DNA of 64,000 bases from Somniosus microcephalus (taxonomy: Eukaryota), in the NCBI GenBank assembly GCA_052327205.1, contig CM126234.1, positions 32,302,001-32,366,000 of the forward strand, given 5' to 3'. Positions 44,957 through 59,800 of this stretch are shown one piece after another; the stretch's first letter is position 1; every line of letters begins with the position of its first letter. Below the pieces are notes generated by a model, which saw nothing but the letters and a program-made list of their open reading frames with translations, did no database searches and was not told the origin of the DNA. The position numbers and the translations under genes were made by a program.

Positions 44957-45978
44957 CTGATTTGACAGAAAGATAATAACTAAAGTATCTGGAAGTTATG
45001 GGGGATAATTTAATCTCACAATTAATAAAAGCACAAGATAGCCAAGCAATTAGCAGCCAGAATATCAGATTTTAAAAACCAATCATTTACTGTAATAAGT
45101 TTGTATAAGACATCAACCCACTTTCTCTCCAGGCCAGCCCCTAACTGAAGCAGAGGAACAGTGGTGGGCAAAATGGAAGCTCGGTTCTCCCACTCCTCCT
45201 CTTCCCTCCAATTAAAACTAGAGGCGCACGTGAACTCATTCCAAGCATTATCAATGTTTTATTCATTTTTTCTTTTGGTATTTAAAAGTTAGATTTGTTT
45301 TTTTTTTAATAAATTGCTAAAAGAGACTATGCTGTTATTTACAGAGTCCAAAAGATCTCAGCAACATTTGTCGTGTTGGATAGGCCACTGGGACAGTGTA
45401 TAATACAGCAGGCACATTCCCTGATCAAGTGTGATGTTTTTCCAATGGTTGAAATAAATTTATGAATGCCTTTGTTACTTATAGGACATTTTTACTCTAA
45501 GCATCACACATTGTAATTTTAACAGCTTTAAAGTACATTATTTAAATGATCTTTAAACAGCAAATGACAGCACCATCTTTACAAACAGAACTTGTTCTGA
45601 AAGGTTTGTGATAATGACAGACCCTTTCCCTTCCACCTCTCTCCAATCCATTTTTGGGGCAACTTTCTTGCTCATTAAGATGAGGGGTCAGAATATGGTC
45701 AGCTGACTCTCAACAGTGGGAACGGAACATTCTTCAGCTGCCAGCCTAGGATTCTAACTCGAGTCAGGTAAGTTACGAGTCAGATACAATGTAATGCTTC
45801 CATCGCATCACTCAGGGATGTGCCTCGACCCTTGAAGAGCTCTCCATAGTGGCCAAACATGATGGTTCCATTTCTAACACTGCACCTGAGCAAGACTGCT
45901 AAATGAGTGCAGAATTAGAGTGCAGTTTTGTACTATGAGCTCATGTGACTTGGGAACTTCATTGTGATTGCTGATTAC

Positions 45979-46233
45979 TGTAAAGTCTGTGGGTTGTACA
46001 GTTAATAACGACACAGACTTCAGGAGTAACAAACAAACAGGTCTTTACTATTCGAAGGTCAGGGCGAATCTGCCCTAGTTATCCTGCCACAACACTTATA
46101 TACTGGTGTGGTCACTGTCGGTATTACAGTATACAGAAGCCAAACAAGTAGTGCCACACCTGAAGTAGTTCTCTTAAAGGCGAACGGTTACATTCAATAG
46201 TTCCCTTAAAGGTAGACGGGTACATACACTACA
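45979..46233 (-). repeat. 3' LTR (255 bp) of the chimeric element
   Basis: Differs from 50779-51033 at 2 positions; TATATAA and AGTAAA motifs on the minus strand. Confidence 0.96.
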
Positions 46234-46651
46234 ATCCTCCCTTTTTAGCTTATTACTTACAGAGTCCCCGTTAAACATACATATCTTCATATAAAACAAA
46301 TTACAGGTATAATCTCGGTGGAGGCAACGTCATATAAAACAATTTACAGATATAATCGCGGTGGGAACAGTTCACAGGTTCAGTCTCTGCGGAAACAGTT
46401 CATAGATTCAGTCTCTGATCTTGACTCGTTCCGAACAGCATCTCTTTGGTGTAGCCGGTTCACATGGCTAGCGTGACTCCTCCATAGCCTTTTTCTTGAC
46501 GTAACAGCTTGAACTTTCGTCCTGTTGAACCAGCAATGCGGACTTTTACAACCAACTGGCTGTCTTGATAATTTCCGGTTTTTCAACTAATTTAGCTCCT
46601 TTCGTAGTGTCCCGCCTGAGATGGTAGAAGTGATCATATTTTAGACAGTTA

Positions 46652-49600
46652 TTATCTTCTGCTTTTTCTTTTCTGCCTTTTTGAAACTCTCGGAGCTCCT
46701 TTCTCGGCTGCCAGCTGTAGCGCCACCAACTCTCTATGTTCCTTCGACTTTAAGTGCTTCATCCTGATTTCGGCACTTTGGGAGTTTTCATCACAAACTG
46801 GGCAGATCAGATCCTCGTAATATTCAGTGTCACTCAACAGGTCATGGTAATATTCGGGTTCGTCCTGAGTTAGGCCAGCGAGAGGGCCTTCTATTTCCTC
46901 CTTACCCATCTGGACGTTAGCTGACTGTGGTTCCTTCCCTAGCTTCATGCATTCATATTCATCCCGCTCTTCCTGGGTTGTCTCTTTTGAGAGCTCCGAA
47001 CTCCTTCCCTCTGAAGATTGAAGCTCGTGTTCAGATTGTTCCCCCAGCATATGAAGGAGTTGCATATGAAGGAGTTGGCTGACCGTTAACCCTTCCAATG
47101 GAGCACTGTGGATCAGAGTCTTCTCCATTTCATCCACCTTTTTCTCCAATGCTTTCACCTTCTCTTCCTCTTGTACTTTGGCTTCCAGCGCTCGGAGAAG
47201 TTGCGGCTTGATGCTCTCTAGCTCATGTTCAGGGCCCATTCTTACAGTCTCTGTGTTTCTTACAGGTTCCTCCTCTTCCACTGAAAGGATTCCCAGTTGA
47301 ATCTGTTCTTCAAGTCGTTGAACCTCGGTCATTGCCGCCTCATATTTGTCTTGGGTTTCCTTCAATATTTTTATGAGTTCTTGGACATCTTGTCTTTCAT
47401 GTTCTGCCATGTCTTTCACCTCTAAATCCTCATCTATGTATGGAACTTCTACCGATGAGTCTGTCTTGGCCTTGAGCTCATCAAGAATTCCCTGCAGCCT
47501 TTGGACTTCTTGCTCATGTTCAACCTTTAGTTGCTCATATGCTTCCACTGAAACTAGCTTTTCGGAGGTTGCCGAGTCAACCCCCTCCAGAATTGTAGTC
47601 TGGGCCTGTTCATACTGTTCTTTCAACTTCTCACACTCTGCTTGTAAGGAGTCGTAGAGAAGAACTGGAATAAAATCCTGGCTTCCTGAAGATTCCTCTT
47701 CATTTGCTTCTTTCGCAATTTTCTGTTGGCGTTCAGCCAAGGCTGCTATGCTATCTGCCTCTCGAAGTCTCACTGCCATCAAATCTTCTTTATTCTTGCA
47801 GTCTATCTCAGCCATTTTCCGTTTACTTTCATTTAACTGAGTGAGTAGTCCCTTATTCTGGGCTGAGAGATATTGCACCTTCTCATGTAGACCATTGCAC
47901 TCCTTCTCTGCTCGACATAGCTGGTTACCGCTGATTTGGTTCTGTGTTTCAAGTTCCAACATCCTTTGCTTAGCTTCTTTCAGTTTCGCCCCTATAAGCT
48001 CCTCTTGCAACATGGCCACATTATTCTCATCAGGTAAAGAAGCGTTTCTCTTTTCTATGTCCAAGATTTTTTTCTGCATCTCTTTAAGTGCACACTGCGA
48101 TTCAGCTTCTCTTAACCTTGCCTGCACTAGCTCCGTCTCCAATTGCAGAACGAAATCCTCAGTGTAGTGTGGTTTGCCTTTATGCTGTATCTCTAGATCA
48201 TGCAAATATTCTAACTCCTGAACATCATAAGGGAGATGTGATCGGTAATTGGTCATGATGGCTCTATGGTCGCTCTCTGCTTGAGCCAGCAGGTTCTGTT
48301 GTCTTTCCAGGCTCTCCCATTCGGTGTCATAGAACTTCTTCATTGTTTTCATCTCTTGTACGAGACGGTAACTCAATTGTTCTAATTGTTGTCGTAGTTT
48401 GAAATAACGTTGAGTTCGAGCCCGGTGTTCCTCCGTAATGCATATGTCTGTAACTTGAACAGACTCAGAATTCTCTGTCTTTATGCACGCCATCGTTTTT
48501 CCCACCTTAGTCAGTGAGTTCATGTTAACCTTGTTTTTCATACTTGGGCTGGACTTATCGTCTTCCGGCTCAGAGTCTGCGCTGCTTGTCTGCACCGAGT
48601 CCTCACTCGTCATTGCTTGCAGGTAGTGCCATTCCATGTCTATTTTCTTGATCCACTCCCGTCCTAAAAGTGGTGGTCCTCCCTCAGGTAGTACGTATAA
48701 GTTCATTCTTGGGTGTTCTTTACCCCTATCTCTCACCTTGACTCTTATCTTTCCCACGGGGTATACTTTATGCCCTGTGTATGTCTGCAATACGAACTTG
48801 GTATCTCTTAAGGGTATATGTGAGAATAGCCGGTGGTAATCCCTTTGATTTATGACTGATACAGCTGATCCAGTGTCCAACTCCATTTTCACTTGGACTC
48901 CAGCTATTTTTAGCATGACCCAGATAGTTTGTAGGTCAGCTTCCTTACTCACATTATGAATTCTCAGACTTCCCAGCTCCTGGTTGTTTGGGTCTGAGTC
49001 TGAATTCTGTTCGTCTGAACTCTTCTCAGCCACCTTGTGTACCTTGTTGTACTTTTCTTGTGGTGGCTTCTTTTGATCGTTGGTCTTCTTCCCTGACCGG
49101 CATACCTTCGCGATGTGACCCAGTTTGCCACATTTCCTACACTCTTGGTTCTTAAACCAGCATTGATTCTGGTCGTGCGTTGTCTTCCCACAACGGTAGC
49201 ATTTTGTTGTGCTCGAAGTAATTTGGTCCACCCCGAGTGCCGCCGCCTTTAGCTGCATTTCCGCCGTTCCTTTCGCTGCGGCTTCGTGCGATGCAGCTAT
49301 GAGGACAGCCCTGTCCAGTGTGAGGTCGTTTTCTTCCAGTAATCGCTTCTGCGTTCCTTCTTTGGACAATCCGCATACGAACTTGTCACGCAGTGCCTCT
49401 GTCAGATTCCCTCCGAACTGGCAGTATTTCGCTAGCCTACGCAGTTCGACCAAGTATTCCGCATTGCTTTCGTCTTTCCTCTGCGTTCTTGCGTAGAATT
49501 TGAATCGTTCAGCCAGCATCAACGGTGTGGGGTTCAAGTGGTCCTTCAGCACAGCCACAATCTCTTCGAAGGTCTGATCCGCTGGTTTATCTGGTGCTAT

Positions 49601-49771
49601 TAGATGCTTCAAGAGCCCGTATGTTTTTGCCCCCATCGAGTTTAGCAATGTTATCGCCTTGTCGTCTTCCTCTATTTTGTTGGCTTCGCAATAGATCTCT
49701 ATGCGTTCCACGTACGTGGCCCAGTCTTCTATTTCAGAATTAAAATCGTTAATATTCCCTCACTTAGGCAT
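46652..49771 (-). CDS. Gag (2x CCHC), aspartic protease (LDTGS) and a captured coiled-coil/Zn-finger mosaic; in-frame TGA at codon 4 in this copy
   Basis: 1019-aa open frame 49711->46652; upstream ATG CCT AAG TGA at 49771; no RT, RNaseH or integrase core motifs. Confidence 0.88.
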
Positions 49772-49989
49772 CTTTCTTTCCTTGGGAGCAGCACCAGTAT
49801 TTCTTTAAGTATTCTTATTTATTTGTTTATTTCTAAGATGGCGGTTTTTCCCGCGAAATCGGCGGTTTCCCGCTCTTTCCTTCTCTCCCTGCCCACTTCA
49901 ATGGCGGTTTCCCGCTTCTGTCGTCTTCTCCGCCTAATGGCGGCTTCCCGCGTTTCTTCCCTGGTGGAAGGGGTACGCTTTCCCCACAG

Positions 49990-50293
49990 CGGACAGGTTC
50001 AGCTGCTGGGCTGGCTCTCGCACAGCTCCCCTTCCTCGGCTCTGTCTTTTCCTCCCGCCCGCACGGCTCTACCGGCTCTGGGTACACCCCGTTAACGGAG
50101 GACAGTTCAGCCGCTGGACTGGCTCTCGCGCAGTCTCTCTCCCCTTGCTCGGCTCTGTCTCTCTCTCCCACCCGCACGTTCGGTTCTGCCGGCTCTGGGT
50201 ACCCCGTTGGTGGAGAACAGTTCAGCCGCTGGACTGGCTCTCGCGCAGTCTCTCTCCCCTTGCTCGGCTCTGTCTCTCTCTCCCACCCGCACG
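49990..50293. repeat. GC-rich ~115-bp degenerate tandem repeat (3 units) in the element leader
   Basis: acagttcagccgctggactggctctcgcgcagtctctctcccc...cccgcacg at 50102 and 50217; weaker unit at ~49993. Confidence 0.8.
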
Positions 50294-50778
50294 GTTCCTG
50301 TTCGCCTCCCAGCCCTCTCGCAGACCGGTGTTTCCCTCCCCGGCTGCGGCTGGGTTTCTCTTCCCGCGCCTACTCCCAGTCTCAGCACTTCGTGGCTGCG
50401 GTCGCTGCCCGGCTTTTCCCGCCGATCGTGGTCCGACTGTCTCACGACGCCGTTGGACCCGACTTTCTGACCGGCTCCGTTCCCCCTCGACCGTGGTCGA
50501 GTGCACAGCCCTTATCCTCCGGATATTCTCCACACCTTCCCCTACTCACAGTCTCCGCGGCCGCCTTGTTGCCTGCTGATCGGCTCACTCCGCACCGTGG
50601 TAGAAGGGTAGTCAGTGCCTGTTGCTGATGGAAGCTTTTGTTGCTAAAAGTCTTCTTCCTTTCTATTGCTGCAGCCTCGTGTTTTCTCCCAGCAGAACGA
50701 CGAGGGCGGTTGCCTCTCTTCGACGCTCTTAGTTGCTTTGGTAGTCTTGCCGCAGGGTACGATCGGACTCGTCGCCAC

Positions 50779-51033
50779 TGTAAAGTCTGTGGGTTGTACA
50801 GTTAATAACGACACAGACTTCAGGAGTAACAAACAAACAGGTCTTTACTATTCGAAGGTCAGGGCGAATCTGCCCTAGTTATCCTGCCACAACACTTATA
50901 TACTGGTGTGGTCACTGTCGGTATTACAGTATACAGAAGCCAAACAAGTAGTGCCACACCTAAAGTAGTTCTCTTAAAGGCGAACGGTTACATTCAATAG
51001 TTCCCTTAAAGGTAGACGGGTAAATACACTACA
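50779..51033 (-). repeat. 5' LTR (255 bp) of the chimeric element
   Basis: Adjacent PBS at 50768-50777; flanked by TSD ATTAC at 51034-51038. Confidence 0.96.
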
Positions 51034-51119
51034 ATTACAGAAAGGGGCTCTCTATTTGAACCCAGACACATGGTTCGAGTGCAGCATTTCACCCAGCCTG
51101 CCTTTCTGGTACACAGTAC

Positions 51120-51323
51120 CTTTTCCGTAATGTCATTCTTAATCACTTCTTGAATGATGACATCTGCCAGAGTCTTGAAGTCTTGTACAAACTTCTTATT
51201 TTTATCTGGTCCTTTCTTCTCTTCGATCAGAAGCTGGAACAGCGCTTCCTCTCGTTTACAAGCTCGAGCAATATTTGCAGATTTCTCAGAAGCACAGATC
51301 AAGGCGGTTAGGATACTGGCCAT
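51120..51323 (-). CDS. INPP1: INPP1 first coding exon (MASILTALICASEKSANIARAC...FKTLADVIIQEVIKNDITEK)
   Basis: ATG at 51323, donor gtactg. An acceptor (ttaagcag) ~27 nt upstream implies a non-coding exon further 5'. Confidence 0.94.
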
Positions 51324-56875: not shown

Positions 56876-59800
56876 TGTAATGATATCAGCAAATAGTGAT
56901 GGTATTTGCCTGTTTGATTATTTATGCCGTACCAGCATATTTGCCTGATTGATTATTTATGCCTGACCAGCAGAGGGCATGTGAGAGACAAGCAGTTTAG
57001 TTTTAGTTTTGTTTTAGATGGATCTCTAAGATGGTGTCTCCTGTAATGCTGTTAACTGAGTTGAACATACTTTAGATAAAAAGACAAGCTCTTTCATGAA
57101 TGTGTCGTCATTGAACCCACATACAAATCAATACATGATGTCAGAAGGGATTGAAAGAGATGAAGAGGAAAAATCTGAAGTTAAATCAGCTCTCCACATA
57201 TTAGCAAGCCAAAAGAGAACATCGTTACTTACCATTGGAGAATAGCTAACGAAGTGAAAAAATGGTAGGATTACACCCACCGGCGAAGCTTCAGTTGACA
57301 GGTAATGTGGCTGAAAGTTGGAGGAGGTTCAAACAACGTTTGGGGTTGTATTTAGCGGCAATCGGAGCCGACGAGAAAAGTGATAAAATGAAAGCGTCAG
57401 TGTTCTTACATGTCGTGGGTGATGAAGCGCTGGAGGTGTATAATAACTTCACATTCGCTGCTGAGGGAGACAAAATGAAGCTGGATAAAATAATGGAACA
57501 GTTTGAGGCCTACTGCATACCTAAACGTAACGTGACGTTTGAGAGGCACAGATTTTTCACATGTGTACAGAAAACGGGAGAGACTATTGATCAGTATGTG
57601 ACTGAACTGAGAAACAGAAGCAAAACGTGTGAATTTGGAGGACTGACAGACTCGCTGATAAAAGACAGACTGGTGTGTGGTATTCCAGATAATGGTCTAA
57701 GGGAAAGACTGCTAAGAGAGCAAAATTTAGACCTGGGAAAAGCCATAGCACTGTGTAGGGCTGCAGAGATTGTGAAGTCGCAGGCAAAGGAGCTGTTCAG
57801 TGACAGTAGCTGCAACGTGGATGCAGTGAGTAAGAACGGACACAAACCGTTTTACAAAAAGAGCGCCAATGTGGAAAAAGAGGCGTGGTCAGTGAACAAA
57901 AATGAAAGGGGCAATCGAAAGTCATGTAGTCGATGCGGTACACAGCATCCACCAAAAAAGTGTCCAGCATATGGTAAAAAATGCAATAGTTGCAACAAAA
58001 ACAACCATTATGCCGGTTGCTGTAAGAACCAAGCGCAACAAAGCAAGGTCCATGCAGTAGATGAAAGCAAGATAGAGGAGTTCTATGTGGATGTTGTGTC
58101 TGAAAACAAAAAAGAAAAAAGAGACTGGATGTTGACACTAAAAGTGAATGACATACACATTCCATTTAAATTGGATACTGGAGCACAAGTTAATGTGATA
58201 TCAGAGACTGATTTTAAGAAAATTAGACCCAGACCAAAGATACATGGAATAAAAGTGAAAGTGACAGGATACTCAGGTACTGATATACCAGTGAAAGGAA
58301 AATGCATTGTCAAAGTGACACACAAGGACAGAGAGCACACGCTAGCATTAATCGTGGTGCCAAAGGATGTGCAAGCCATACTAGGTTTAATAGCCTGTGA
58401 GAGACTGAACCTGGTAAAGAGAGTCCTCGTTGTGGAAAGCGAAGGAGGGACAGTCTATGATGAACTCATGAAAGAGTACAACGACCTATTTCAGGGTCTA
58501 GGCTGCCTTCCAGGAGAACACACGATCAGAGTAGATAAAAGTATGCCAACGGTCATACATCCATGCAGAAAAGTTCCGTTTGCTCTTCAAAAGCAACTGA
58601 AGGCAGAGTTGGACAGGATGGAAAGCCTGAACATGATTCAGAAGATAGATGAGCCAACTGAGTGGGTGAGTTCCCTCGTCGTTGTGGACAAAAAGAATGG
58701 TAAGCTCAGAATTTGCCTGGATCCAAGAGATCTAAACAGAGCAATAAAGAGAGAGCACTTCAAGCTTCCTACACGTGAGGAAGTCATGTCACAGTTTGCA
58801 AATGCAAAGTATTTCAGCAAGTTAGATGCATCATCAGGATTTTGGCAGATGAAACTGGACGAGGCAAGTTCAAGACTGTGCACGTTCAACAGTCCATTTG
58901 GCAGATACAGATTCCTAAGGTTACCATTTGGCATTGCCTCAGCTCCTGAAGTGTATCACAAAACTATCCATATGATCTATGAGCACCTGGAGGGAGTTGA
59001 TACATCAATGGATGACATCATAGTATGGGGAACCACAAGAACTGAGCATGACGAGAGACTGAAAAAAGTGCTGGAAGCAACAAGGAAAACAAACCTGAAG
59101 CTGAATAGAGAGAAATGCCAGCTCGGGGTGACAGAACTGACATTCGTGGGAGATATCCTTAGCAGTGAGGGCATCAGACCAGATCCCAGAAAGGTGTCCG
59201 CCATTGAGAATATGCCAAAGCCACAATGCAAAAAGGACGTGCAGAGGTTTAATGGAATGATCAACTACATGGATAAATTCATATCCAACCTCTCAGAAAA
59301 GATGTCGCCACTGAGACGACTAACTGAAAAGAACATAGAATGGGAATGGAATCATGAGCATGAGAAGTCATGGAGCGATCTAAAGAAACTGCTCACAGAG
59401 GAACCAGTTCTGAGGTTTTATGACCCAGCGAGACCCATCAAGATATCATCAGATGCATCACAGAGTGGGCTCGGTGCCGTTCTTCTGCAAAAATATGACT
59501 ACTGGCAACCTATTGCATATGCATCGCGCTCAATGACAGATGCGGAGACGCGATATGCTCAAATAGAAAAGGAACTGCTCAGCATCACATACGCCTGTGA
59601 AAGATTTCACCAGTTTGTGTCAGGACAAGCAATCAGTGTAGAGACTGACCATAAGCCCTTGATTGCATTGTTCCAAAAGCCACTAAATGGATGTCCGCTT
59701 AGAATACAAAGAATGATGATCAGGCTGCAACGCTATACACTGAATGTTGCGTACACACCGGGTAAGCTGATGTATACAGCAGACACGTTGTCCAGAGCTG

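Follow-up and report, generated by a model that had tools for sequence, protein, structure and literature searches.

Exons of five host genes, at least three of them very probably captured from circular RNAs, replace pol in a non-autonomous Gypsy family of Somniosus microcephalus

We analysed a 64,000-nucleotide (nt) stretch of the genome of the shark Somniosus microcephalus (assembly GCA_052327205.1, contig CM126234.1, positions 32,302,001 to 32,366,000 of the forward strand; hereafter, the window). A Gypsy element with long terminal repeats (LTRs) occupies positions 45979-51033 on its minus strand, in an intron of INPP1. The LTR pair, 255 nt each, has 2 mismatches. Downstream of gag and protease, the element carries a cargo of intronless host exon sequence from five genes: STK10, ANKRD24, EVI5, optineurin (OPTN) and DNAJC21. 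The element has the following parts (UTR, untranslated region; PBS, primer-binding site; RT, reverse transcriptase).

45974..45978, no strand: left target-site duplication ATTAC (sequence)
45979..46233, minus: 3' LTR (alignment of the LTR pair)
46235..46246, minus: polypurine tract (sequence)
46405..46476, minus: integrase C-terminal tail, decayed
46477..46679, minus: STK10 arc, the far side of the STK10 back-splice, decayed and nearly all 3' UTR (8 indels, 6 not multiples of three)
46652..46893, minus: C2H2 finger and basic tail up to the stop codon, DNAJC21-derived (protein matches)
46894..47093, minus: optineurin remnants, three short stretches (74-80% nt), far longer in sister copies
47094..47714, minus: ANKRD24 large exon, resuming exactly at the point of interruption (95% nt to host)
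47715..48200, minus: EVI5, full turn of a five-exon 678-nt circle, opened in the last exon, minus 192 nt in frame (96-99% nt to host exons)
48201..48295, minus: ANKRD24 arc, with one exon's end, a 66-nt exon, the back-splice junction 48218/48217 and 17 nt from the beginning of the large exon upstream
48296..48608, minus: STK10, pieces of the linker and coiled coil with in-frame shortening (host exons, 78-84% nt)
48609..48919, minus: aspartic protease, LDTGS ... PLLGREW (Pfam)
48920..49771, minus: gag, with two CCHC knuckles at 49100-49198; ATG at 49771, stop at codon 4 in this copy
49772..50767, minus: 5' UTR, GC-rich, with three 113-115 nt repeats at 49997-50297
50768..50777, minus: PBS-like motif TGGCGACGAG; the same or nearly the same motif follows the LTR in the pol-bearing relatives L090, L135 and L140
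50779..51033, minus: 5' LTR, 255 nt, TG...CA
51034..51038, no strand: right target-site duplication ATTAC (sequence)

An earlier sequence-only reading, made from the letters of this DNA without database searches, had placed the LTRs, the ATTAC duplication, the PBS-like motif and the purine tract where we find them. It had also described a single 1019-amino-acid open reading frame (ORF) with Gag, two knuckles and protease, and no pol domains. Pfam bears out this content, with gag, zinc-knuckle and aspartyl-protease matches (E 4e-5 to 0.01, all under the curated cut-offs) and no match at E<=1 for RT, RNase H or integrase in the 1019-codon frame; a PDB search of the element protein returned retroviral Gag knuckles only. 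The frame is present, but it opens at a later GTG because the ATG frame, which opens sister copies, is stopped here at codon 4, and with that stop this copy likely makes no full protein. Relative to copy L058 it also has in-frame deletions of 189, 21 and 3 nt. No env-like ORF was found between the LTRs, no poly(A) with the cargo in the copies examined and no tRNA gene in the 64-kb window. As far as its sequence tells, the element is a non-autonomous Gypsy derivative, neither an autonomous Gypsy nor a retrovirus.

When the cargo was searched segment by segment, the matches were gene-specific rather than low-complexity coiled coil, and the best of them were elasmobranch proteins. Two assignments of the sequence-only reading stand as made: the EVI5 piece has a gene-specific match at E 1e-72, and the ANKRD24-like piece matches a shark 'ankycorbin'/ANKRD24-like protein (79%, E 2e-76), its non-shark matches being ANKRD24; a gag domain is absent from all 45 listed matches of the latter search. 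The DNAJC21 finger holds as well. It matches shark and skate DNAJC21 weakly (window against shark DNAJC21, 23 of 47 residues identical), a protein atlas search with it gave a generic C2H2 lead only, and the match is plain in less-diverged sister copies. STK10 had been named correctly (81% in a protein search with sister copy L038 as the query, which also gave 69% for optineurin), but the STK10 sequence begins at 48608, immediately after the protease, and a further, decayed arc of it lies in the 3' UTR. What had been read as RAI14/UACA belongs to ANKRD24 as well and represents the C-terminus of that protein, with identity at 21 of 27 residues. The count of about five captured genes thus survives with RAI14/UACA removed and the overlooked optineurin added. 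In the same genome, the pieces have their counterparts in four separate multi-exon genes, located on C3, C8, C13 and C17. According to the domain lists of the matches, the cargo lacks the known functional domains, namely kinase, TBC, ankyrin, UBAN and J domain.

The origin of the cargo can be read from its exon order. We located the host genes in the same genome and read the splice sites at the exon borders; in the tiles covered (the whole STK10 gene, and EVI5 except 347.972-348.004 Mb) each host exon was seen once. In this copy, the donor of the 66-nt ANKRD24 exon (C13:62873413) is joined to the acceptor of the large exon (62861849), which lies 11.6 kb upstream (window 48218/48217), and an EVI5 donor (C3:348013503) is joined to an acceptor 45 kb upstream (347968011; window 48185/48184). 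In the earliest-type copies, an STK10 donor (C8:167191933) is joined in the same way to the acceptor at 167198436. All three back-splice junctions run from phase 0 to phase 0. Among 185 loci (host tiles and overlaps included), with at most 3 mismatches allowed in 24 nt, the ANKRD24 junction was counted 35 times, that of EVI5 22 times and that of STK10 21 times.

Two of the inserts are full turns. The first and last bases of the EVI5 insert are neighbours in the last of five host exons, so that the insert was one turn of a 678-nt circle before its in-frame 192-nt deletion; it interrupts ANKRD24 with zero bases lost or gained. The STK10 insert of the earliest type comprises a single turn of a five-exon circle, 1245 nt long and 98-99% identical to the host sequence, with an 11-nt overlap, and its two exon ends share AG only. 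Judged by the pol-bearing relatives, this turn sits between the first RT residues and the integrase tail. In the window copy the STK10 junction is lost and the permuted order is kept, the far arc having decayed in the 3' UTR. Optineurin is colinear: its beginning lies no more than 8 nt from an acceptor and its end 4 nt short of a donor, and a back-splice there would shift the frame. These ends fit a circle copied without its junction, which is not proof of one. Those capture junctions of STK10, OPTN, ANKRD24 and EVI5 that could be read fall on microhomologies of 4-11 nt. The looped-back exon order thus indicates that at least three cargoes came by way of back-spliced, most likely circular, RNA, and we consider a circular-RNA origin of these highly probable. 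Serial capture of spliced mRNAs, as the sequence-only reading had it, agrees with the lack of introns, the host exons and the nested stages described below, but it missed the back-spliced donors. A family copy with the ANKRD24 back-splice junction (L070/L089, C13:62.867-62.872 Mb) was also seen in an ANKRD24 intron, antisense and between exons of the predicted circle, which would have three exons and about 1743 nt.

The window copy belongs to a large family. An LTR query and a cargo query each matched at 96-100% in all 40 places that were scored, those of the cargo being spread over many chromosomes (the first-look candidates, 1,756 and 5,620, are not copy numbers). One family copy per 520 kb of host tiles corresponds to about 10^4 copies, with a Poisson range of about 300 to 70,000. 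Copies have their own LTR pairs and target duplications, which marks them as products of secondary retrotransposition. The frame is open from the family start in 23 of the 31 loci examined. Frame types are nested: 741 codons (STK10, OPTN and finger), 956-966 codons (with ANKRD24 added) and 1025-1129 codons (with EVI5 added). Earlier types were sought with host parts absent from this copy. A full STK10 turn between RT start and integrase tail, with no other cargo, was present in all seven copies fetched, STK10 with a long OPTN in all nine of the next set, and STK10 with DNAJC21, with or without OPTN, in L177, L184 and L185. The surviving stages are hence nested as STK10 only, then with OPTN, DNAJC21, ANKRD24 and EVI5 added. 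In the latest (stage-3) copies, the synonymous distance to the host exons falls in the order of nesting, from 0.54 for STK10 through 0.35 for OPTN and 0.09 for ANKRD24 to 0.05 for EVI5. LTR-pair mismatch is similar across the stages (1.17%, n=5; 0.99%, n=7; 1.11%, n=8; 0.92%, n=15).

Several individual copies deserve mention. In another branch of the family (L176 and L178-L183), a myosin-tail-type coiled coil (Pfam E 3e-15), presumably that of cingulin-like 1, lies inside the STK10 turn and makes a sixth host gene; these copies have the DNAJC21 finger too. Locus L038 includes a 741-codon member that lies within the 5' UTR of a copy of a later stage. The cargo of L037 is interrupted by an unrelated RT-type insertion, and the copies L109, L111 and L119 sit in tandem arrays with units of about 43, 66 and 20 nt.

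The family is transcribed. In run X23, 22,045 of 16.65 million reads fell on 4 kb of the element, about 95% of them in element-sense orientation if the library is of the dUTP type. Most RNA reads are 90-99% alike to the element and therefore derive from sister copies; the runs may be of related species. EVI5-less forms occur in both the RNA and the DNA runs. In four public runs with three organism codes, 30 of 30 bins of the element were covered, and the mosaic is therefore no assembly artefact.

Selection acts differently on the two halves of the frame. Between diverged subfamilies, the pairwise ratio of nonsynonymous to synonymous substitution (dN/dS) lies at 0.06-0.16 for Gag-protease (the two types closest to each other, which are the earliest, give 0.37), whereas that of the cargo is 0.44-0.57 at similar dS (one comparison was saturated and is without value). 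Against the host exons dN/dS ranges from 0.25 to 0.80, the top value belonging to the window copy. Neutral simulation with the observed transition bias gave means of 0.68-0.75 and 5th percentiles of 0.50-0.56; with a kappa of 8 the values were 0.60 and 0.44. The frame itself is evidently protected by selection, because the STK10 arc that lies outside the ORF broke up (over about 200 nt, 6 of its 8 indels disrupt the frame) while 69 of the best 111 Gag-protease matches keep frames of at least 940 codons. By its dN/dS, the cargo appears weakly constrained at most, and it is likely that it is mainly in-frame filler. STK10-only copies, copies with STK10 and OPTN, with or without ANKRD24 and EVI5, and the myosin-tail branch have all spread. 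Net indel lengths in the cargo are all multiples of three, as opposed to 167 of 184 in the UTRs that are not, but the copies had been picked for open frames, two L053 pairs were parsed wrongly and we do not rely on this. Of the 20 truncated copies fetched, nine have a stop in common with some other copy, and the shared stops fall at three sites. In one case the same site is hit in two subfamilies, which would suit a mutational hot spot. The copies L165/L166 and L157/L158/L159, which share stops, are mutual closest relatives, and their stops may reflect limited spread or segmental duplication.

The missing pol is found in relatives. RT, RNase H and integrase follow one another in L090, L128 and L140, compared with which the gap in the family extends from the RT start to the integrase tail. 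Gag-protease of the element is 55-70% identical to that of such relatives (66-70% alike in nt), which are abundant and have a similar PBS and polypurine tract; 4 of 98 integrase matches lie in a 1321-codon frame. Seven related Gag-protease elements (66-70% nt), most of them with pol, were seen in the 520 kb of host tiles (L077, L090, L128, L129, L135, L140 and L149) and belong to a very dense Gypsy family. A DNA query across the protease/RT-start junction returned nothing, which is uninformative as the search skips common words. With pol absent from the element and present in its relatives, mobilisation by Pol in trans, as the sequence-only reading had proposed, is very probably how the family spread.

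Template switching by RT and cutting of the template RNA by RNase H are part of the general biochemistry of retroviruses. A probable explanation is that this is a non-autonomous Gypsy family in which RT, RNase H and integrase were replaced by host exons through stepwise template switching, mostly onto circular RNAs, in particles supplied by a helper, and that the cargo is mainly tolerated filler. RT would jump from the element RNA to a co-packaged host circle at a microhomology. RNase H would cut the circle behind RT, copying would run out after about one turn and RT would then jump back to the element RNA. These RT and RNase H steps are modelled on retroviral biochemistry and on the scheme of PMC5131818. 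Pol would be supplied by an autonomous relative in shared particles. Only products with an open frame would keep spreading, because translation has to proceed almost to the 3' end of the RNA, for Gag to be made in cis and for nonsense-mediated decay to be avoided. The basic C-terminal tail is probably needed too, and the coiled-coil cargo would be mainly tolerated under weak constraint. Since switching from RNA to RNA yields the sense orientation, this orientation is no sign of selection. A bolder version, which we put forward tentatively and with more doubt than belief, is that circular RNAs are the preferred donors in this Gypsy lineage, that RNase H imposes a 'one turn' rule (optineurin being a turn that skipped a frame-breaking junction) and that the DNAJC21 finger and basic tail took over the job of the lost integrase tail, giving a new selected retroelement protein.

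A number of observations weigh against template switching onto circles as the source of a filler cargo. No back-splice junction was found in the optineurin cargo when it was compared with the host exons, and none is shown for DNAJC21. The host DNAJC21 gene was not found with a Pfam PF21884 search, a skate N-terminal query or a shark query; the last returned 129 matches, and all ten that were fetched are element copies. A locus from the PF21884 search was rejected as the host gene, since it reads as a paralogue, which we take to be DNAJC2, and has no match to the finger. The search for a direct autonomous parent by its integrase gave the relative family only, and the pol-bearing relatives, 66-70% alike in Gag-protease nt, are not close enough for one of them to be named as the direct helper. 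Run X24 (17,664 of 14.4 million reads on the element, on both strands) is not clearly stranded. Reads across the STK10 back-joint exist (78 in X23, 71 in X24), but they are mainly element RNA, because host-only exon parts have a depth near 1; they do not show a host STK10 circle in these runs, where element RNA swamps the signal. Exon ends share AG or CAG, and linear exon repetition can also yield joints that resemble back-splices. Finally, to call the cargo 'pure filler' would go too far, since its dN/dS (0.44-0.57) falls short of the neutral mean and 66 of 69 frames (with overlapping loci counted) retain all four zinc ligands.

The last two points bear on the possibility that the cargo is a selected protein module, in which coiled coils, finger and basic tail released by the protease act as a scaffold, a trafficking or autophagy decoy or a nuclear-import signal. 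In every comparison of later stages, the cargo has a dN/dS lower than the neutral mean, and the finger retains its zinc ligands, with 12 of its 19 other positions changed between the window copy and DNAJC21-like sister copies. A basic tail closes every architecture, moreover, and it comes either from the integrase tail or from DNAJC21 plus a shifted STK10 frame. The zinc ligands and the basic tail favour some protein-level role at the C-terminus. However, the cargo dN/dS is 3-8 times that of Gag-protease, the cargo is freely swapped and cut between spreading subfamilies, and its pieces are permuted and without kinase, TBC, ankyrin, UBAN or J domain. Glu/Gln/Lys-rich phase-0 exons would offer in-frame microhomology and would explain the bias towards coiled coils without any function. 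We thus find a selected module unlikely. Of the functions suggested by the sequence-only reading, the scaffold and the trafficking decoy receive no support from the analyses made, while the idea of a nuclear-localisation carrier keeps some in the zinc finger and basic tail. Its argument from sense and in-frame cargo holds for the frame, which is selected, but not for the orientation, which is uninformative, and only modestly for the cargo, whose dN/dS is somewhat under neutral.

The scrambled junctions could in principle have arisen from linear RNA, through trans-spliced or exon-repeated transcripts or through extra slips at AG/CAG exon ends followed by trimming. Splice consensus gives exon ends 2-4 shared nt, host circles are not demonstrated in the read data, and other origins are allowed for some non-colinear pseudogenes (PMC4897178). 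Such routes are nevertheless difficult to reconcile with an EVI5 insert that ends at adjacent host bases and sits in ANKRD24 without a base change, or with one STK10 turn plus an 11-nt overlap, whose two exon ends share AG only. STK10 and EVI5 would each need several switches hitting exact bases, and no host sequence beyond the three predicted circles occurs in any copy examined. We therefore rate linear donors as quite improbable. Explanations of the mosaic as a chimera of the assembly, as noise from low-complexity coiled coils or as a single ordinary gene of the host are refuted, for practical purposes, by the 40 of 40 loci at 96-100%, the four host genes and the 30 of 30 bins covered in four runs.

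Two neighbouring features of the window were noted. A coding exon of INPP1 lies at 51126-51323 on the minus strand (PDB match, E 2e-21), and the element stands about 90 nt downstream of its likely donor, in gene-sense orientation. A distant Gag-protease match (24%, E 2e-27) at 57334-58386 on the plus strand, within a purine-skewed stretch at 57-61 kb, is probably another Gypsy element.

Several known systems resemble this one in part. In acutely transforming retroviruses, e.g. E26 with gag-myb-ets, host coding sequence replaces pol in frame with gag and the virus depends on a helper. The shark element differs in being a germ-line retrotransposon in which no env was found, with a cargo devoid of catalytic domains and no oncogenic sign. 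The LTR-mediated retrocopies of animals described by Tan et al. (2016; PMC5131818), in which internal ORFs are replaced by spliced host RNA, share with it, as far as the main text goes, microhomology at the switches, multi-gene chimeras, retention of both LTRs, secondary retrotransposition and co-transcription. Unlike the retrocopies of that account, the shark element has at least three back-spliced donors, two full turns, five genes nested in a gag-protease frame and stages that are high-copy subfamilies; the word 'circular' is absent from the main text of PMC5131818. Maize Bs1, as summarised there, is likewise a non-autonomous LTR element with three host-gene fragments fused into a hybrid ORF, but it comes from a plant, has 1-5 copies and one fragment out of frame, and no circular donors are mentioned for it in that text. 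Dong et al. (2016; PMC4897178) reported 33 mouse circRFWD2 pseudogene copies of one circle, flanked by MMERVK10C, and called the mechanism 'mysterious'. These copies also have a non-colinear junction at splice sites, circle-resident exons only, no poly(A), an LTR association and many copies per event; the shark element, by contrast, holds several nested circles that preserve the frame of a conserved gag-protease ORF, and their entry and exit points are resolved to single bases. We found no account of this family or of serial capture of circular RNAs (circRNAs) by an LTR element in literature that leaves out most subscription journals. LTR-mediated retroposition and circRNA-derived retrocopies are known already, as described in PMC4897178 and the main text of PMC5131818. 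What is new is the repeated, nested capture of several back-spliced RNAs, two of them as exact turns, which share an unbroken frame with a conserved gag-protease, and the amplification that followed each step.

In summary, the origin of the cargo is stranger than the sequence-only reading saw, and the function claimed for it is weaker. How circRNA is written back into genomes was left open in PMC4897178, and this family offers base-exact entry and exit points for repeated events together with surviving intermediates. It also offers a simple rule that can be tested: about one turn, microhomology and a kept frame. In-frame fragments of STK10, OPTN, ANKRD24, EVI5 and DNAJC21, on the order of 10^4 copies by a rough count, risk being taken for gene-family expansions in large shark genomes, and element RNA would be miscalled as host circRNA. 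Furthermore, the family fossilises which exons were back-spliced in the shark germ line.

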